Shown here piece after piece: positions 15,813 through 51,320 of a stretch of DNA of 51,596 nucleotides (positions are counted from its first letter, which is position 1; every line of letters starts with the position of its first letter). Source of the stretch: a virus. Taxonomy: Duplodnaviria > Heunggongvirae > Uroviricota > Caudoviricetes. The stretch lies in the IMG/VR virus record IMGVR_UViG_2718218098_000003, one strand, 5' to 3'. The notes under the pieces are model-generated. The model had not been told where the DNA came from, did no database searches, and saw nothing but the letters and a program-made list of their open reading frames with translations. The position numbers and the translations under genes are program-made.

Positions 15813-15899
15813 AAACGGTTTGCGGGAAAAGGAGAGTTAAGTAGAATTGCTGCGGGTGCTTGAGGCTATCTGCCTCAGGCATGAACACCAACGGCAGAT

Positions 15900-15990
15900 A
15901 GAGAAAAGCCCCAGTTAACATTACGCGTCTTGCAGGACGCTTAACATTAATCTGAGGCCCAATCTATGTCTCACAAATGTAGGTTAGCCT
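15900..15990 (-). ncRNA. Candidate Sok-type antisense RNA region (not delimited)
   Basis: Placement inferred from hok/sok architecture; no promoter or terminator resolved. Confidence 0.2.
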
Positions 15991-16022
15991 CTTACGTGCC
16001 GAAAGGCAAGGAGAAGCAGGCT

Positions 16023-16178
16023 ATGAAGCAGCAAAAGGCGATGTTAATCGCCCTGATCGTCATCTGTTTAACCGTCATAGTGACGGCACTGGTAACGAGG
16101 AAAGACCTCTGCGAGGTACGAATCCGAACCGGCCAGACGGAGGTCGCTGTCTTCACAGCTTACGAACCTGAGGAGTAA
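16023..16178 (+). CDS. hok: Hok/Gef-family type I toxin (HokD/RelF-like)
   Basis: 51-aa MKQQKAMLIALIVICLTVIVTALVTRKDLCEVRIRTGQTEVAVFTAYEPEE; SD aaggag; in-frame upstream extension from 15966 (mok-like). Confidence 0.85.
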   Translation: MKQQKAMLIALIVICLTVIVTALVTRKDLCEVRIRTGQTEVAVFTAYEPEE

Positions 16179-19232: not shown

Positions 19233-19307
19233 GGCCCTTTAGCTCAGTGGTGAGAGCGAGCGACTCATAATCGCCAGGTCGCTGGTTCAAATCCAGCAAG
19301 GGCCACC
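19233..19307 (+). tRNA. tRNA-Ile (anticodon CAU, lysidine-type; ileX/ileZ-like)
   Basis: Cloverleaf read by hand; anticodon loop ctCATaa; close to recalled E. coli ileX. Confidence 0.8.
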
Positions 19308-19309
19308 TG

Positions 19310-19386
19310 TCGTCACTAGCTCACCTGGAAAGAGCATCAACCTTCTAAGTTGAGCGTACGAGGTTCGAGTCCTCGGTGGCGGTCCA
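19310..19386 (+). tRNA. tRNA-Arg (anticodon UCU)
   Basis: Anticodon loop ctTCTaa, T-loop ttcgagt, CCA encoded. Confidence 0.65.
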
Positions 19387-19388
19387 GT

Positions 19389-19464
<76 letters not shown>

Positions 19465-19467
19465 TAT

Positions 19468-19542
<75 letters not shown>

Positions 19543-20313
19543 GCATTTGAAACAAGCCTTATTGTATTGCGGCACTGGCGCATTTTTTTATTACGTGGGA
19601 GCAGGTTGTTTTGAAAAAGCATTCTGTTCTCTGGCTATGATTTGAGGCCGGGTGTAGCCTCAGTGCTGATTTTTTACGGCAGCAGAATGGTGCATTATCG
19701 GTGGAGATTTTGTATTTCCTGGCAGGGGCGGTGATGCATCATTTTGGTGTTGTAAAAGCACCGCAGAGGCGTTCCTCAGGGCGAGGGTGGTTTAAATAGT
19801 CGGTTTAGCGGGAAACCACAGTATCCATACAGCACGGAATACTTCGGGAGATACCCGACGCCTCGGTTTACTATAATAAAGACGAAGCATCCTTTGTATT
19901 GACAAACCGCCTGCTTAGACGGTTCTTTTTTGGCTGGTTTATTGTATGCCAAATCATTATTGAAAGGACTGTATTAATAACAAAATCCGAAATAATATGC
20001 CTGCATATTGTTAGTTTTCTTATGCTTTTTGTATATTGCTGCACCGCAGCCCCCCCTGCAACGAAAGTTGTATGATGAATAATTTTTATTTTTTCCTTTT
20101 CCAGTCATCTGAGGATGCTGGCTTCTTTTAGCTCCGGCCCGACAATACGGGGATATCACGTCAGGGGATGAAGGAATTAATTGCGTTGCCGGGGAAGCAT
20201 CGTCAGCTTTTTTAAGATAACTCCTGTGTGTTATGTGCATAAATGCTACAAACTCCACATTTTATGTGGTTGGGAGTTGCCGGGCGCGCAGTGAGTTTGC
20301 TAAGAAAACTCCT

Positions 20314-20415
20314 GCATGGTGAATCCCCCTGTGCGGTGGGGTGATACCATTAACTTTTTTGTCGCCGACAGGTATCACGAACGTTTTGTTCACCGGGAGG
20401 CACCCGGCACCATGC
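20314..20415 (+). other. Structured repeat element copy A (conserved 5' and 3' boxes, variable internal helix)
   Basis: gcatggtgaatccccctgtgcggtgggg...gtgatacc/ggtatcac...caccgggaggcacccggcaccatgc. Confidence 0.6.
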
Positions 20416-20580
20416 ACTTCAATAGATTCTCTCCACATTATTGATATTCTTTCAGAATATCCCACACAGACTTTGTGTAAATGTTAACGAATGTGCGTTT
20501 TATTTGATCTAATCCGCTGTTTGAGCGTTCAAAACAACGGTATATGTAATCCTTTACTATATGACATATTGTGAGGAAAA

Positions 20581-21009
20581 ATGGGTTTTCGTAGCGCATC
20601 AACTCTTACGTTGATTGCTGGTGGGATTATTGTCGGATGCACTGATGCTGTGTCGACAAATTATTACGACCGGGCATCATATTACTCCGATAAATCAACA
20701 GAGACACAGTATGTGAGTTCATCTGAACGTACTACTGATGTTAGTGAAGATATCCGTCAGTATGCCCATCAAATCAAGAACGCCATCGAAAAACAGTTCG
20801 GGGATGCGAGTAAGTATTCAGGAAAAGAGTGTACGCTTAGCATGCATATGGCCCCGAATGGCCTTCTACTGGAGGTTAAAAGAGAAAGTGGAGACCTCGA
20901 TTTATGTCGTGAAGCGATGAATGCGATAAAGAATGCTGATATACCAGCGCCGCCGTCTCCGGAAGTATATAAAGTATTTCACAATGGAGTGCTGGATTTT
21001 AAACCGTGA
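20581..21009 (+). CDS. Lipoprotein with TolA C-terminal (domain III)-like domain
   Basis: 142 aa; lipobox IIVGC after MGFRSASTLTLIAGG; C-terminus YAHQIKNAIEKQFGDASKYSGKECTL...EVYKVFHNGVLDFKP resembles recalled TolA C-terminus; SD gagga. Confidence 0.65.
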   Translation: MGFRSASTLTLIAGGIIVGCTDAVSTNYYDRASYYSDKSTETQYVSSSERTTDVSEDIRQYAHQIKNAIEKQFGDASKYSGKECTLSMHMAPNGLLLEVKRESGDLDLCREAMNAIKNADIPAPPSPEVYKVFHNGVLDFKP

Positions 21010-21207
21010 TTCTACATCTTTGCAGTAAACAATAATCATAATTGCATGTTTTTTCTGTGGTGGGGTATTTGGCTTCTGTTGCCTGCGATGTATTGTGGAG
21101 CTGGTATCAGCCTGCAGAAAATGCACACAGGTGTGAAGTGTTAAATTCCACACAACTCAGAACGCAGAATGTTGTCCTGCTTGCGGGGAGTTTGTTAAAA
21201 GAGTACT

Positions 21208-21329
21208 GCATGGTGAATCCTCATGAGCGGAGGGGCATAATGACAGATGTTTGGTCGCGTTATCGTATAGGCAAGTTGCGGATTCTGTCTGGTCATTGCA
21301 GAATTCACCGGGAGGCACCCGGCACCATG
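21208..21329 (+). other. Structured repeat element copy B
   Basis: gcatggtgaatcctcatgagcggagggg...aatgac/gtcatt...caccgggaggcacccggcaccatg. Confidence 0.6.
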
Positions 21330-21460
21330 TATTTTCAATATTTTATTGATTATTCTCTTTTTCGGAATACTCTGGTTATGTTTTCCTGTAACTGATAATT
21401 AAATCACATTTTGTGTAAATGTATATTGTCTGAACGGGATAAGTTCAGTATCTTCTGAAT

Positions 21461-21584
21461 GTATGGCGAATCCCCCTGTGCGGCGGGGCGTACTGATTTA
21501 AGTAGTCATCCAAGAATGCAGCTGAATGAAAACGCGCTCCATATTAATCAGTGGTGGAGCACCGGGAGGCACCCGGCGCCATAC
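21461..21584 (+). other. Structured repeat element copy C (compensatory changes in closing helix)
   Basis: gtatggcgaatccccctgtgcggcgggg...actgatt/aatcagt...caccgggaggcacccggcgccatac. Confidence 0.6.
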
Positions 21585-21610
21585 CGATGATGAAAATAAA
21601 TGCGTCCATC

Positions 21611-21636
21611 AGCCCCTCTCCGGAGGGGCTTTTTTA
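21611..21636 (+). terminator. Intrinsic terminator
   Basis: agcccctctccggaggggcttttt. Confidence 0.65.
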
Positions 21637-21641
21637 TGGGC

Positions 21642-40678: not shown

Positions 40679-41422
40679 ATGACACAGACAGAATCAGCGA
40701 TTCTGGCGCACGCCCGGCGATGTGCGCCAGCGGAGTCGTGCGGCTTCGTGGTAAGCACGCCGGAGGGGGAAAGATATTTCCCCTGCGTGAATATCTCCGG
40801 TGAGCCGGAGGCGTATTTCCGTATGTCGCCGGAAGACTGGCTGCAGGCAGAAATGCAGGGTGAGATTGTGGCGCTGGTCCACAGCCACCCCGGTGGTCTG
40901 CCCTGGCTGAGTGAGGCCGACCGGCGGCTGCAGGTACAGAGTGATTTGCCGTGGTGGCTGGTCTGCCGGGGGGCGATTCATAAATTCCGCTGTGTGCCGC
41001 ATCTCACCGGGCGGCGCTTTGAGCACGGGGTGACGGACTGTTACACGCTGTTCCGGGACGCTTACCATCTGGCGGGAATTGAGATGCCGGATTTTCATCG
41101 CGGGGATGACTGGTGGCGTCACGGCCAGAATCTCTATCTGGATAATCTGGAGGCCACAGGGCTGTATCAGGTGCCGTTGTCATCAGCACAACCGGGCGAT
41201 GTGCTGCTGTGCTGTTTTGGTTCATCGGTGCCGAATCATGCCGCCATTTACTGTGGTGACGGCGGGCTGCTGCACCATATTCCTGAACAACTGAGCAAAC
41301 GAGAGAGGTATACCGACAAATGGCAGCGACGCACACACTCCCTCTGGCGTCACCGGGCATGGCGCGCATCTGCCTTTACGGGGATTTACAACGATTTGGC
41401 CGCCGCATCGACCTTCGTGTGA
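40679..41422 (+). CDS. K: Tail tip assembly protein K (MPN/JAB + NlpC/P60-like)
   Basis: 247 aa; HSHPGG JAB-type motif; lambda gpK-like. Confidence 0.85.
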   Translation: MTQTESAILAHARRCAPAESCGFVVSTPEGERYFPCVNISGEPEAYFRMSPEDWLQAEMQGEIVALVHSHPGGLPWLSEADRRLQVQSDLPWWLVCRGAIHKFRCVPHLTGRRFEHGVTDCYTLFRDAYHLAGIEMPDFHRGDDWWRHGQNLYLDNLEATGLYQVPLSSAQPGDVLLCCFGSSVPNHAAIYCGDGGLLHHIPEQLSKRERYTDKWQRRTHSLWRHRAWRASAFTGIYNDLAAASTFV

Positions 41423-41992
41423 AAACGGGGGCTGAAGCTATCCGCGCACTGGCCACACAGCTCCCGGCGTTTCGTCAGAAACTGAGCAACGGCTGGTATC
41501 AGGTACGGATTGCCGGGCGGGACGTCAGCACGTCCGGGTTAACGGCGCAGTTACATGAGACTCTGCCTGATGGCGCTGTGATTCATATTGTTCCCAGAGT
41601 CGCCGGGGCCAAGTCAGGTGGCGTATTCCAGATTGTCCTGGGGGCTGCCGCCATTGCCGGATCATTCTTTACCGCCGGAGCCACCCTTGCAGCATGGGGG
41701 GGCAGCCATTGGGGCCGGTGGTATGACCGGCATCCTGTTTTCTCTCGGTGCCAGTATGGTGCTCGGTGGTGTGGCGCAGATGCTGGCACCGAAAGCCAGA
41801 ACTCCCCGTACACAGACAACGGATAACGGTAAGCAGAACACCTATTTCTCCTCACTGGATAACATGGTTGCCCAGGGCAATGTTCTGCCTGTTCTGTACG
41901 GGGAAATGCGCGTGGGGTCACGCGTGGTTTCTCAGGAGATCAGCACGGCAGACGAAGGGGACGGTGGTCAGGTTGTGGTGATTGGTCGCTGA
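41320..41992 (+). pseudogene. I: Tail assembly protein I, disrupted by +1 frameshift in a G7 tract (41696-41702)
   Basis: ORFs 41320-41826 and 41588-41992 join into one gpI-like protein if one G is removed. Confidence 0.6.
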
Positions 41993-46162: not shown

Positions 46163-46189
46163 AGCCCGCCGGTTCAGGCGGGCTTTTTT
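46163..46189 (+). terminator. Intrinsic terminator after lom
   Basis: agcccgccggttcaggcgggctttttt. Confidence 0.65.
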
Positions 46190-46200
46190 GTGGGGTGAAT

Positions 46201-47370
46201 ATGGCAGTAAAGATTTCAGGTGTACTGAAAGACGGTACAGGAAAAGCGGTGCCGGGATGTGTCATCCGGCTGAAGGCAAAACGGACCAGTGCCACAGTGA
46301 TAGTGCATACCGTGGCCTCCTGTGAACCCGGTGATGCCGGTCGCTACAGTATGTCAGTGGAGCCGGGGAATTACAGCGTCATTCTGCAGACAGAAGGGTA
46401 TCCGCCGGTGTATGCCGGAGAGATAACCGTCAGTGAAAAATCCCGTGCAGGGACGCTGAATGAGTTTTTGCTGAATGAAGAAACGGCGGCGGAATATCCC
46501 AGAGCACTGGCAGAGCTGGAGGCCGTTGCTGCAGAAATCCTTGAACGGGCACGCGGGAGTGAATCCCGTGCGGAAGAAGCAGCCCGACGGGCAGAAAATG
46601 CACGGGGGCCGAAGGGGGACAAAGGGAATACGGGACCGCAGGGGCAGCCAGGACCGAAAGGTGACCGGGGTGAGACCGGCCCCAGAGGGGAGCGGGGCAT
46701 GACAGGTGCACAGGGTGTACCGGGACCCAGGGGTGAGCGGGGCGAAAAAGGGGAAAAAGGTGACCCCGGCGGCCCGCAGGGTCCCCGGGGGGACACCGGT
46801 CCGGCGGGGCCACAGGGACCCAGAGGTGATACCGGAGAGCGGGGAGTACCAGGACCTCAGGGGCCGAAAGGCGACGCAGGGCCAAAGGGTGAGCCTGGTC
46901 CGAAAGGCGACACAGGTCCGAAGGGTGAACGGGGACCAAAAGGCGACACAGGTCCGAAGGGTGAACAGGGGCTGAAAGGCGACACCGGTCCGGCAGGGCC
47001 ACGTGGTCCCAGAGGTGATACGGGACCCGCGGGTCCACGTGGGCCAGCTGGCAGTGATAATGCTTACAGCAGGGCAGAGTCGGATGCCCGCTACCGTAAT
47101 ACCGGCGAGGGAGGGATTAATGGCTGGGAGCGGGATACGGCTACAGGGATTATGAGACAGTGGGGTGTGTTTGCCGTTGCAGGTCGTTACGGTAACCAGT
47201 GTCGTTTTCCTGTTCCGTTTCCTCAGGGACCGTGGAATATCCAGCTGACAGTAAAGGACGATTTATCAGCAACCGTGCCGTGCGTGATGAGTATGACAGA
47301 CAGCGGGTTTACCGTTGGCACCATAAATGAATGGTTTGGTGAGGTTTACTGGTATGCAACAGGATGTTAA
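46201..47370 (+). CDS. stf: Side tail fibre protein with collagen-like Gly-X-Y repeats
   Basis: N-terminus [20 protein letters not shown] (stf-type); ~160 aa of GxY triplets ([26 protein letters not shown]...). Confidence 0.8.
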
Positions 47371-47920: not shown

Positions 47921-48296
47921 ATTTACCACGCCCGCAGTACTGGAGATGCTCGGTGATTACCGCTGGCGGCTGGTTGAACCTTTTGAGTTCTGGCAGACAG
48001 AGCGTCCGGATGATGTGATATATGTACCGGAGGGGTACGTGACAGACCTTGCGAGCGTACCACGTATTCTGTGGTCCGTATTTCCGCCACACGGGCGTTA
48101 TGCCAAAGCGGCGATAATACATGACTGGCTGTACGACAATGCGCTCCGGACAAAGCGCGAAGCGGACAAGATATTTCTCGACGCGATGTGTGTTCTGGGT
48201 GTTCCCCGCTGGCGCAGGGTGCTGATGTATGCTGCCGTCAGGCTGTTTGGTCGGGGTAATTACGGAGAGGTACGGTATAAGCCACTGGAGAAATGA
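47910..48296 (+). CDS. DUF1353-type phage protein
   Basis: 128 aa; family name from memory of similar tail-fibre-adjacent proteins, not verified. Confidence 0.45.
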   Translation: MMSKFTTPAVLEMLGDYRWRLVEPFEFWQTERPDDVIYVPEGYVTDLASVPRILWSVFPPHGRYAKAAIIHDWLYDNALRTKREADKIFLDAMCVLGVPRWRRVLMYAAVRLFGRGNYGEVRYKPLEK

Positions 48297-48298
48297 AT

Positions 48299-48327
48299 AA
48301 AAAAAGCCCCCGCACGATGAACGGGGG
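48299..48327 (-). terminator. Minus-strand intrinsic terminator H1
   Basis: Plus strand aaaaaaagcccccgcacgatgaacggggg. Confidence 0.5.
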
Positions 48328-48417
48328 ATCGCAAAAACACGCCTTTAGGTGATTTATGAGTATACACTCCGGAAAGGGATACTACTGATTCCAAATAAAT
48401 AAAGCAATTAACGGAAT

Positions 48418-48544
48418 GTGAATTATTTAACTGAAACCGAGAAAAGGTTTTTATTTTAAATGTATATTATGATGAGCTAAAAATTAGCATGGTAATTAAA
48501 AGTTTGTAATATTTATAAATGCAATGAAAAGGAGTTGGTTTCGG
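48418..48544. repeat. AT-rich ~130-bp repeat, copy 1
   Basis: gtgaattatttaactgaaaccgagaaaagg...agcatggtaatta...aaaaggagttggtttcgg; ~80% identical to copy 3. Confidence 0.6.
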
Positions 48545-48578
48545 GGAACATCCGCCACGCTGGTATTATACCAGGGCA

Positions 48579-48764
48579 GCGATAATACATGACTGGCTGT
48601 ATGACAATGCGCTGAGGACAAAAGCGGAGGCAGACCGGATATTTCGAGACGCAATGAAGGTCCCGGGTATTCCCCGCTGGCGCAGGATATTGATGTATGC
48701 TGCCATCAGGCTGTTCGGTCGGGGTAATTATGGAGAGGTACGGTATAAGCCACTGGTGAATTGA
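48579..48764 (+). pseudogene. 3' fragment of a second DUF1353-type gene (no start codon)
   Basis: Translates AIIHDWLYDNALRTKAEADRIFRDAMKVPGIPRWRRILMYAAIRLFGRGNYGEVRYKPLVN, about 85% identical to the C-terminus of 47910-48296. Confidence 0.6.
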
Positions 48765-48765
48765 A

Positions 48766-48798
48766 TAAAAAAAGCCCCTGCACGGTGGTGAACAGGGG
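48766..48798 (-). terminator. Minus-strand intrinsic terminator H2
   Basis: Plus strand aaaaaaagcccctgcacggtggtgaacagggg. Confidence 0.5.
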
Positions 48799-48886
48799 TG
48801 CTAATAAAATTACTCTGTAATAACTGCATCTTATAAGGTAAACATCGTTATAGTATAAGGTATGTATAAAAAAAGCAATCGGCATA

Positions 48887-49015
48887 GTGTGAGTTATTTA
48901 AATGAAAATGAGAGATGACTTTAATTTGAATTGAATAATATAGCCGACTAAGAATTAGTCTTTCAATTAAAATGTTGCAATGTTTTTTAATGCAAAAAAG
49001 AACTGGTTTCGGTAA
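48887..49015. repeat. AT-rich ~130-bp repeat, copy 2 (more diverged)
   Basis: gtgtgagttatttaaatgaaaatgag...aactggtttcgg. Confidence 0.5.
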
Positions 49016-49033
49016 GCATCAGGAGAAAAAGGT

Positions 49034-49066
49034 AAAAAAAAGCCCCGCACAGAAAAAAAGAGGGGC
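49034..49066 (-). terminator. Minus-strand intrinsic terminator H3
   Basis: Plus strand aaaaaaaagccccgcacagaaaaaaagaggggc. Confidence 0.45.
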
Positions 49067-49146
49067 TGAGTCAAAATTATTCTGAAATTAATAAGGATAG
49101 TTCGCAAATTATATTACTGAATCTGAGTGAGCAGAGCAATTGTATG

Positions 49147-49277
49147 AGTGTGAATTATTTAACTGGAATCGAGAAAGGATTTTAATTTTAATTACATATT
49201 ATGACGAGCTACCAATTAGCATGGTAATTAATGATGCATGGCATTTTTAAATGCAATAAAAAGGAGTTGGCTCTATG
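49147..49277. repeat. AT-rich ~130-bp repeat, copy 3
   Basis: gtgtgaattatttaactggaatcgagaaagg...agcatggtaatta...aaaaggagttggctctatgg. Confidence 0.6.
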
Positions 49278-49294
49278 GAATGTCAGGAGAAAAA

Positions 49295-49326
49295 TAAAAA
49301 AAGCCCCGTGCAGACTGCACGGGGGG
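49295..49326 (-). terminator. Minus-strand intrinsic terminator H4
   Basis: Plus strand aaaaaaagccccgtgcagactgcacgggggg. Confidence 0.5.
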
Positions 49327-49706
49327 TCAAAAGAAGGCTTGCCCTATGCTATAGGAAGATTGTTGTAGTTTGTCCATGAAGATACAGGGGCAATATTACT
49401 AAAGGTCATGTTAAGAGGCAATCCAAAGAATGAAATTTTATGCCAGGTATGCTCCATGATAATTTAAGTTAAATTAATAAGGTAATTAATATGTTGATAA
49501 TCAATTTAAGACAAAAAAACCATGCAGCAAACGTACTGCATGGGATATCAAATGTAAGAGAGTAGTAATGTAGCGAAAAGATAATACAGGTATTTACAGA
49601 AAAATAAAACAAAGTGAATGCAACGTAGATTAATTAAATGATTTTTTCATCTTTTAACAATAAGAAGGGTGGCGACAGGCTACTGTGAAGTTGAGTGTGT
49701 CCGGAT

Positions 49707-49735
49707 AAAAAAATCCCCGTCAGCCTGCACGGGGA
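49707..49735 (-). terminator. Minus-strand intrinsic terminator H5
   Basis: Plus strand aaaaaaatccccgtcagcctgcacgggga. Confidence 0.45.
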
Positions 49736-49936
49736 TGAAAGTATCAGAAGTTACACCATTTTTTATTATTTATGGAGGTTACCACAAAGCATGTTACTTA
49801 ATGTTTTTTGAGAAGGCAATCACCTGTTCGAAAAAAATAACCTGAGCGCAGGAAATACATGCGAGAGTTATAAATGTCTGACTTCTTTATTTTAATTGAA
49901 ATAATTTGAAGTGAATTTATTAGGTAAATGTCAGCT

Positions 49937-49975
49937 AAAAAAAAAGCCCCATACAGATATGCTCAGTGTATGGGG
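49937..49975 (-). terminator. Minus-strand intrinsic terminator H6
   Basis: Plus strand aaaaaaaaagccccatacagatatgctcagtgtatgggg. Confidence 0.45.
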
Positions 49976-50503
49976 AAATCGGATTATAGAATCAAAAAAG
50001 AGGTTGTGATTTTGACGTATGAATAATACTGAAATTTTTTCACGGAAGAAAGCAAAATCTTCGTAGCGTGGAATGCAAGAAATATTATAAGTGCACAGCA
50101 GTATTCAGGATTAATAAGAATCTCTCGCGTTGGGGCACTTGCCATGCCTGAATTCAGATTGCTAATAATTCACCAGTACTGCCATAAATCGTAAAAAGAA
50201 CCGCAGACACGTCGCATACAGGAACGTGCCACGGCTGGCTGATGGACGTTCGATAGCGCGAGTTTGAATGAAAATCAGCCGGAGGTGATTTTACATAATT
50301 GTTGCGGAATCATTCAATATAGGGATTGCTTATTTCTGCCTGGATTGGTCTGAAATAGTCCCGAAATTTTCTCTAAAAAACTCGAAAAAAATGGTAACTA
50401 ATTGAATGCATTAATATGCAATGGTACGTGTTTGGGATTAAAAGATGAGCGTAATTTTGCTTAACACATTAATTTAAAAAGGGTTTCTTGTTTGTTGACG
50501 AAA

Positions 50504-50530
50504 ACAGGAATCGTGTTCGGTCTCTTTTTA
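50504..50530. repeat. attR core (direct repeat with 578-603)
   Basis: acaggaatcgtgttcggtctcttttta. Confidence 0.6.
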
Positions 50531-50663
50531 TCTGTTAAAAGCCAGAAGCATTTCCTTCGCTGACTTTATAGTCAACCATAACACACACTCTACTGTCTGA
50601 GTCCAGCGTTTTTTAACATTCTTGTTAAGATTATGTGATCTTTAGCGCGGGAGGAAAATATTG

Positions 50664-51320
50664 ATGAAACAGCCTGCGCCCGTTTATCAGAGAATTGCGG
50701 GTCATCAATGGCGACATATCTGGCTTTCTGGCGATATACACGGTTGTCTTGAGCAGTTGCGCCGCAAATTATGGCATTGTCGTTTTGATCCGTGGCGAGA
50801 TTTACTTATCTCAGTAGGAGACGTTATCGATCGTGGGCCGCAAAGTTTACGTTGTCTGCAGTTACTGGAACAACATTGGGTTTGTGCGGTAAGAGGCAAT
50901 CATGAACAGATGGCGATGGATGCGCTGGCATCCCAGCAGATGTCTTTGTGGTTGATGAATGGCGGCGACTGGTTTATTGCGCTGGCAGATAATCAACAGA
51001 AACAAGCGAAAACGGCGCTGGAAAAATGTCAGCATTTGCCCTTTATTCTTGAAGTACACAGTCGTACCGGCAAACATGTTATTGCTCATGCCGATTATCC
51101 AGATGATGTTTATGAATGGCAAAAGGACGTTGATTTGCATCAGGTCTTGTGGAGCCGCTCGCGATTAGGTGAACGCCAAAAAGGGCAGGGAATTACAGGT
51201 GCTGATCATTTCTGGTTTGGTCATACACCGTTGCGACATCGCGTGGATATTGGCAACCTGCATTATATTGATACCGGTGCTGTCTTTGGGGGCGAACTGA
51301 CTCTTGTGCAATTGCAATAA
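50664..51320 (+). CDS. pphA: Serine/threonine protein phosphatase 1 (host)
   Basis: Metallophosphatase motifs GDIHG, GDVIDRG, GNHE; 218 aa; matches recalled PphA; SD gggagg. Confidence 0.8.
   Translation: MKQPAPVYQRIAGHQWRHIWLSGDIHGCLEQLRRKLWHCRFDPWRDLLISVGDVIDRGPQSLRCLQLLEQHWVCAVRGNHEQMAMDALASQQMSLWLMNGGDWFIALADNQQKQAKTALEKCQHLPFILEVHSRTGKHVIAHADYPDDVYEWQKDVDLHQVLWSRSRLGERQKGQGITGADHFWFGHTPLRHRVDIGNLHYIDTGAVFGGELTLVQLQ

Follow-up and report, generated by a model that had tools for sequence, protein, structure and literature searches.

The stretch of DNA analyzed here, 51,596 nucleotides (nt) from IMG/VR virus record IMGVR_UViG_2718218098_000003 (Caudoviricetes) and referred to below as the window, contains an Escherichia coli prophage with a side tail fiber gene whose product carries a collagen-like Gly-X-Y tract. 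The open reading frame (ORF) runs on the plus strand (46195/46201-47370), and its ATG at 46201, which gives a protein of 389 amino acids (aa), is also the start chosen by PGAP in the identical RefSeq record. The protein is identical to WP_077897941.1, a "prophage tail fiber N-terminal domain-containing protein." The lambdoid late region that holds the gene is complete (terminase, portal, capsid, tail tube, tape measure, L, K, I, J, Lom), and the gene follows J (1137 aa) and Lom directly, with its ATG 11 nt beyond a terminator-like hairpin. The Pfam domains of the product are, in order, phage_tail_N, Collagen, and Gp53-like_C. The identification of the gene as that of a lambda-type side tail fiber with a collagen-like tract held on every test and is supported. 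The features of the locus are summarized in Table 1.

Table 1. Features at the fiber locus, in window coordinates
Feature	Coordinates	Strand	Remarks
Terminator-like hairpin	46163..46190	+	Between lom and the fiber gene; AGCCCGCCGGTTCAGGCGGGCT then T-run; 8-bp stem, 7 GC pairs
Side tail fiber gene	46201..47370	+	389 aa plus stop; collagen-stalked; from ORF calls, translation, Pfam, and annotation
Collar domain, aa 1-90	46201..46470	+	Homologous to lambda Stf residues 1-90 (9e7m_Ta)
Short Ala/Glu/Arg-rich segment, aa 92-135	46474..46605	+	End of PF08400 match
Collagen segment 1, aa 136-189	46606..46767	+	18 Gly-X-Y triplets, in-frame triplet count
Register interruption G-D-P-G-G-P-Q-G, aa 187-194	46759..46782	+	Extra Gly, aa 190, is nt 46768-46770
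Collagen segment 2, aa 191-283	46771..47049	+	31 Gly-X-Y triplets, in-frame triplet count
Tandem array, 36-nt (12-aa) unit, 3.8 copies	46858..46992	+	Inside collagen segment 2; Tandem Repeats Finder
C-terminal non-collagen region, aa 284-389	47050..47367	+	Foot modeled over aa ~306-389
Two overlapping antisense ORFs	46371..46796 (141 aa), 46430..47038 (202 aa)	-	By-products, not considered genes
DUF4376 gene (PF14301), 179 aa	47381..47920	+	Co-inherited and co-varying with the fiber tip
DUF1353 gene (PF07087), 127 aa	47913..48296	+	Third cassette member; PHROG annotation "tail assembly chaperone"

Domains of the fiber protein

The N-terminus of the protein matches phage_tail_N (PF08400) over aa 1-134 (E = 2.3e-40), and aa 1-90 align to the N-terminal collar domain solved for lambda Stf (E = 1.2e-32 for chain Ta of 9e7m). 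A preliminary description of this DNA, made from the sequence alone, had named an stf-type N-terminus, and both matches bear this out. The short segment that follows is presumed to be an alpha-helical trimeric neck. The last ~30 aa of PF08400 domains (PfN) have been predicted to form a coiled coil (Ghosh 2012, PMC3368898).

The collagen-like tract occupies aa 136 to 283 (nt 46606-47049) and consists of 148 residues, that is, 49 Gly-X-Y triplets plus one Gly; its end moves to 47058 (151 aa) if a borderline G-S-D triplet is included. The preliminary description had placed the tract at 46600-47050, which is correct within a few bases, and had called it rich in Pro, Lys, and Asp, which the residue counts confirm (Gly 50, Pro 28, Lys 12, Arg 12, Asp 10, Thr 9, and Glu 9), with Arg likewise abundant. 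Its figure of about 160 uninterrupted residues does not stand, neither in the count nor in the continuity: after 18 triplets, the extra Gly at aa 190 moves the Gly-X-Y register by one residue. A register break is found at the same position in relatives (GETGGPPG in P0074 and P0002). The tract is 18.9% Pro and 29% charged residues, and its DNA is 69% G+C with 7.3% T on the plus strand, in a window of 50% G+C. Tandem Repeats Finder detects a second 36-nt repeat pair at 46766-46835 in addition to the array in Table 1. Since the 51.6-kb window, read in all six frames, contains no other run of at least five Gly-X-Y triplets, and since the tract matches Pfam Collagen (PF01391) with 84.2 bits (E = 5.4e-24; cut-off, 27.2 bits), we conclude that it did not arise by chance. 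It contains three RGD tripeptides (aa 196, 208, and 271) and seven KGD tripeptides; these sites are yielded automatically by GPR-GDT and GPK-GDT triplets, and nothing suggests an integrin-related function for them.

The C-terminus matches Gp53-like_C (PF21882) over aa 314-388 (32.1 bits against a cut-off of 24.9). A search with the last 109 aa finds the R2 and R1 pyocin fibers (6ct8, E = 2e-5; 6cxb, E = 8.5e-4), while AP22 gp53 (4mtm) is matched at E = 0.11 only. Structure prediction, which had been named beforehand as a check, was run with AlphaFold2 on the C-terminus and 10 homologues. The resulting model has the discoidin-like jellyroll fold of Gp53-like_C and the R-pyocin foot, with a predicted local distance difference test score (pLDDT) of ~80 over aa 306-389, and the linker of 25 residues between collagen and foot has a pLDDT below 50. 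The short globular C-terminal domain of the preliminary description is therefore borne out by the family match, the pyocin-fiber matches, and the model. The relatives of the C-terminus are the same list that Salazar et al. (PMC6363177) gave for the pyocin foot, a trimeric discoidin-like jellyroll whose variable distal loops were proposed to bind the core of lipopolysaccharide (LPS). Based on the model, we presume that aa ~306-389 form a beta jellyroll foot, which would be the trimerizing and receptor-binding tip of the fiber. At E ≤ 0.01, Pfam reports no PF06820 (PfC) in the fiber C-terminus. In the alignment, the relatives that end in ...YPYCVGLFQRIS group separately.

Tract length, antisense frames, and distribution

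The preliminary description suggested that repeat number varies between strains and could modulate fiber length. The first part of this holds at the level of the family but not among complete E. coli genomes: in all 11 that have the gene, it is 1170 nt long (identity, 98.9 to 100%). P0203 (EKR5647583.1, 401 aa), which comes from a draft genome, corresponds to its nearest 389-aa relative, P0196, plus one 12-aa unit of 36 nt, the same period as the Tandem Repeats Finder array. Among fibers with the same tip, the tract is 151 aa long in the lineage of the window (G-S-D counted), 133 aa in P0074, 109 aa in P0002, and 72 aa in P0077, and all the length differences fall within the tract. The large PfC-type family shows the same behavior, with a second tract of 84 to 180 aa that varies by multiples of 3 residues and a remainder that is constant. 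Among about 120 homologues, length varies solely in 3-residue steps. Repeat variation within the closest lineage is rare, and it is a reasonable inference that tract length modulates fiber length. The 90%-identity cluster of P0073, which holds the window fiber and P0203, contains many "collagen-like protein, partial" entries, because draft assemblies break inside the Gly-X-Y repeat. This cluster also lists unrelated "terminase small subunit" proteins of 139 to 146 aa, which we treated as a clustering artifact and left out.

The DNA of the tract also contains long antisense ORFs, which the preliminary description had taken to be spurious by-products of the repeat, and two further off-frame ORFs on the plus strand. 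Read on the antisense strand, the tract has a single stop codon (0, 1, and 0 in the three frames). It might be argued from the length of the ORFs (141 and 202 codons at 46371-46796 and 46430-47038), and from a longest stop-free antisense stretch of 302 codons in the gene, that one of them is a real overlapping gene. However, the stop codons in all six frames of the tract number 13, compared with 13.3 ± 3.2 in composition-matched shuffles, and the openness of the antisense frames follows from base composition: with so little T on the sense strand, the antisense strand has few of the A residues without which no stop codon can form. The longest open antisense stretch is also inconsistent across homologues (214 codons at locus L003 and 136 at locus L002). 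What is conserved among the homologues is the Gly at each third sense codon, with insertions and deletions in multiples of 3 residues (9 nt), which indicates that selection acts on the sense frame. PGAP annotates no gene on the minus strand at the fiber locus. The stop counts and shuffles thus agree with the earlier reading of these ORFs as by-products, and on composition and variable length we reject them as genes, the chance that either is one being negligible.

The fiber gene is present in 11 of 5,426 complete E. coli genomes. Of the 11 carriers, ten were isolated from mice and one from fresh water, and the foot variant has so far been met almost exclusively in mouse-derived E. coli; this bias may reflect clonal laboratory-mouse lineages rather than adaptation. 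An exhaustive HMMER search with the 109-aa C-terminus against 1.84 billion cluster representatives gave 71 matches at E ≤ 1e-3 and 2 at E ≤ 1e-10. Most of the 71 are non-collagen fibers with other N-terminal types, and beyond the query lineage a collagen tract is found in three (P0002, P0026, and the fragment P0056). A word-indexed search with the same 109 aa gave one match; it is insensitive and is superseded by the HMMER search. In 50,697 deposited phage genomes, tblastn found no close relative of the tip, only three weak matches of ≤39% identity, and these leave no sequenced phage as a reference for receptor specificity.

Downstream genes and prophage setting

The two genes downstream of the fiber gene are assigned by Pfam to DUF4376 and DUF1353 and not to Caudo_TAP (PF02413), the family of Tfa. 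Their PHROGs families are annotated as tail fiber, assembly, or chaperone, and downstream of the fiber there is a weak match to a Tfa PHROG (phrog_188, N-terminal aa 1-45, E = 8.6e-9). The order fiber, DUF4376, DUF1353 is kept in three loci. Compared with the window, the tip, DUF4376, and DUF1353 proteins of L002 are 100%, 98.9%, and 99.2% identical, and those of L003 are 68%, 70%, and 88% identical. The shared gene order, and the way in which the two proteins diverge in step with the tip, make it probable that they are cognate fiber assembly or accessory factors.

The L002 fiber, P0077, shares the tip of the window fiber and differs in the rest: its N-terminal domain is divergent, and a non-collagen segment stands in place of collagen segment 1. 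Its gene sits behind those for a baseplate wedge protein, a 517-aa tail fiber, and a Tfa chaperone, neighbors that indicate a phage of a different tail type. DNA homology between L002 and the window extends from 46861, at the start of the 36-nt array, through DUF4376 and DUF1353 to 48552. Since it begins inside the tract, the collagen repeat forms one edge of a mobile stalk, tip, and accessory module. We therefore suggest, as a tentative proposal that we hold at somewhat less than even chances, that the collagen repeat is the recombination joint of a mobile cassette (distal stalk, gp53-like foot, DUF4376, and DUF1353) that crosses unrelated tail types, and that the tip might target a surface glycan of murine strains. 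Mosaic exchange of tail fibers in general is well known, and the exchange of this cassette is thus only modestly new.

A truncated second copy of the DUF1353 3' end, a pseudogene, lies at 48552-48764 and is the sole annotation in 48297-50498. It includes the terminator and is 93% identical over 70 nt (48250-48319 against 48718-48787) to the end of the intact DUF1353 gene, from which it lies 468 nt downstream. The duplicate is probably the scar of an earlier fiber-cassette exchange. An invertible segment that would switch between alternative tips was considered and rejected: the DUF1353 copies run in the same direction (direct repeats), a scan of 48250-50700 revealed no inverted repeats, and the annotation lists no invertase.

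In a mouse-associated E. coli, ryeA/sdsR (463-607) and pphA (50661) flank the prophage, and the core chromosome begins again at ~50499. A full RyeA/SdsR small-RNA pair is present at 463-607 and a weak partial RyeA/SdsR match at 50430-50533; the presence of these sequences at both ends fits integration at ryeA/sdsR with duplication of the attachment site. The right end of the prophage (48297-50498, ~2.2 kb) is AT-rich (29 to 44% GC), contains no ORF of at least 60 aa in any frame, and is confined to the same 11 genomes as the fiber gene. It carries five or six "AAAAAAAGCCCC...GGGG" terminator-like hairpins, spaced ~260 to 470 nt apart and with the T-run on the minus strand, together with a 121-nt unit in three degenerate copies. 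The region resembles decayed modules, or units similar to small RNAs, arranged in tandem. Rfam, run at the gathering threshold over the whole window and in E-value mode over 48200-50700, found nothing significant in or near the fiber gene and the AT-rich tail except the RyeA/SdsR remnant at 50430-50533. Elsewhere in the prophage, RNAs at 19233-19539, 20284-21641, 2169-2347, and 15854-16028 comprise four tRNA genes, three STnc100 RNAs, the RalA antitoxin RNA, and the sok antitoxin RNA.

Proposed architecture, comparisons, and rival explanations

Smith et al. reportedly pointed out collagen motifs in phage fibers in 1998 (Science 279:1834). E. coli prophage collagen-like proteins (EPclPs) of types EPclA to EPclD were defined by Ghosh 2012 (PLoS One 7:e37872, PMC3368898), with a plan that starts with PfN (PF08400), usually followed by an Ala/Ser-rich coiled coil called PCoil, and that places one or two collagen domains before the C-terminal domain. 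EPclA and EPclB end in PfC (PF06820), the rare EPclC and EPclD in unrelated domains; EPclC often lacks PCoil, and its listed members have two Col domains and 479 to 520 aa (PMC3368898). The fiber described here resembles these proteins in being a PfN-bearing E. coli prophage fiber with a C-terminal globular domain, in a tract length that changes by multiples of three residues, and in its interruption, G-D-P-G-G-P-Q-G, which has been reported as conserved in EPclPs (PMC3368898). The positional preferences of the tract are also similar to those in Table 4 of Ghosh 2012 (PMC3368898). At the X position, Pro accounts for 47% here versus 48% in EPclPs and Asp/Glu for 39% versus 36%; at the Y position, the values are 49% versus 31% for Lys/Arg, 18% versus 20% for Thr, 12% versus 14.5% for Gln, 10% versus 21% for Ala, and 10% versus 7.4% for Pro. 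Judged by these sequence features (PF08400 in a prophage tail module, X/Y preferences, and interruption motif), the fiber is an EPclP.

Unlike EPclA and EPclB, the fiber has no PCoil of 88 to 116 aa, since its PF08400 match ends at aa 134 and collagen begins at aa 136, and it carries Gp53-like_C (PF21882) instead of PfC. It is thus neither an EPclA nor an EPclB. By published architecture, EPclC is probably the closest type (no PCoil and a non-PfC end, named PfC2 in EPclC), although this fiber has one 148-aa tract. The fiber comes from a commensal mouse isolate and not from an enterohemorrhagic E. coli strain. The fiber belongs to the already characterized class of prophage collagen-like side tail fibers, with a less common tip.

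Lambda Stf is a protein of 774 aa whose assembly is assisted by Tfa. The fiber resembles it in its locus after J and lom and in its homologous collar domain, and is presumed to share its part in fast initial adsorption by four trimeric fibers per virion. At the gpV/gpM junction of Ur-lambda, the Stf N-terminus makes up a 12-copy collar, and four trimeric side fibers extend from there (PMC12617516). Here, a collagen shaft and lectin-like foot take the place of the long coiled-coil shafts and gp37-like, OmpC-binding tip of lambda Stf (PMC12617516), and DUF4376 and DUF1353 stand downstream instead of a Caudo_TAP Tfa. The feet of R-pyocins (6cl6, 6ct8, and 6cxb) and AP22 gp53 (4mtm) also have a C-terminal jellyroll, predicted in our case, at the fiber's distal end, but they belong to contractile tails with beta-helical or knob-type shafts and not to a siphophage with a collagen stalk. 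Streptococcus Scl1/2 and Bacillus BclA, the latter represented among the weak matches to the fiber protein by structure 1wck, share an unhydroxylated Gly-X-Y helix with charge pairs and an adjacent trimerization domain, features predicted for this fiber; they have other flanking domains and form cell-surface or exosporium filaments rather than a virion fiber.

Based on the domain identities, the anatomy of the tract, the gene context, the length variation, and the sharing of the cassette, we consider it very likely that the gene product is a homotrimeric, lambda-like side fiber with a collar, a helical neck, a collagen stalk, a lectin-like foot, and cognate accessory proteins. By homology with Ur-lambda Stf, the collar domain (aa 1-90) would dock the fiber around the distal tail tube, and the neck (aa ~92-135) would join the three chains. 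The 148-residue tract would fold as a collagen triple helix, giving a thin, stiff stalk of ~42 nm (148 x 0.286 nm) in which the one-residue register break probably introduces a kink or some local flexibility. The final ~85 residues would fold into a lectin-like jellyroll and, as a trimer, make up a foot of the AP22 gp53/R-pyocin type. This foot would nucleate the triple helix and attach to a saccharide on the surface of the target cell, LPS being the likeliest. Contact by the foot would speed the initial, reversible adsorption before J meets its receptor. The DUF4376 and DUF1353 proteins would act as cognate assembly or accessory factors. The repetitive DNA would gain or lose 9-nt and 36-nt units and would also serve as a recombination joint, at which the distal stalk, tip, and accessory genes may pass between phages as a cassette.

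Several points weigh against this proposal. The trimer and the triple helix are extrapolated from EPclA, which has a PF06820 end and a long PCoil. In their favor, experiments on recombinant EPclA showed a trimer that contains an authentic collagen helix (Tm, 42°C); its C-terminal domain trimerizes and re-nucleates the helix, and the molecule resembles a dumbbell with a hinged stalk (Ghosh 2012, PMC3368898). The foot model comes from a shallow alignment (11 sequences), has a mean pLDDT of 70.5, and is a monomer. Lambda Stf binds a protein, OmpC, and not a sugar (PMC12617516). Finally, the window and four sister strains have a frameshift in the upstream gpI-like tail assembly gene, so that this copy of the prophage may not build tails.

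The frameshift is what favors the view that the fiber gene is intact but idle, in a prophage that is defective here and never puts the fiber on a virion. The gpI-like gene (~41320-41992) is split into two overlapping frames of 168 and 134 aa and is labeled "frameshifted" in NZ_CP010206; the region is 761 nt long compared with 760 in most relatives, and the extra base is found only in M6, M9, M11, M15, and M19. However, these five genomes of mouse strains belong to one strain-name series with neighboring accessions; the extra base may reflect an error in sequencing a homopolymer that these genomes share, or else a genuine inactivating mutation. The fiber ORF and both downstream genes are intact, and the constancy of the fiber gene across its 11 genomes likewise speaks against a relic. 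We regard an idle gene as unlikely, and it would bear on activity in one strain rather than on the identity of the protein. A collagen-like protein could also act on the animal host as a lysogenic-conversion factor, a mimic or adhesin using RGD/KGD, and not be part of the virion at all. The RGD and KGD motifs, the adjacent lom (a known moron), and the predominance of mouse isolates among the carriers are compatible with this, but each terminus of the protein points to the virion: the N-terminus is a collar domain matched to a solved lambda structure, and the C-terminus is a phage and tailocin fiber foot. The protein aligns to the Stf collar from residue 1 and has no evident export signal, although no signal-peptide predictor was run. 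The motifs themselves are an automatic product of the triplets, and the mouse bias has the clonal explanation given above. A role on the animal host is therefore very improbable, and a homotrimeric side tail fiber remains the reading that we prefer.

With this fiber, the catalogue of E. coli prophage collagen-like fibers gains a compact PfN-collagen-foot architecture with a rare tip, which adds little beyond annotation. For annotation itself, the locus is a caution that Gly-X-Y coding DNA yields long false antisense ORFs and breaks draft assemblies. For phage engineering, a collagen stalk with a small foot and two accessory genes would be a naturally portable receptor-binding module, with its joint inside the repeat and a stalk length that may be tunable in steps of ~0.86 nm.

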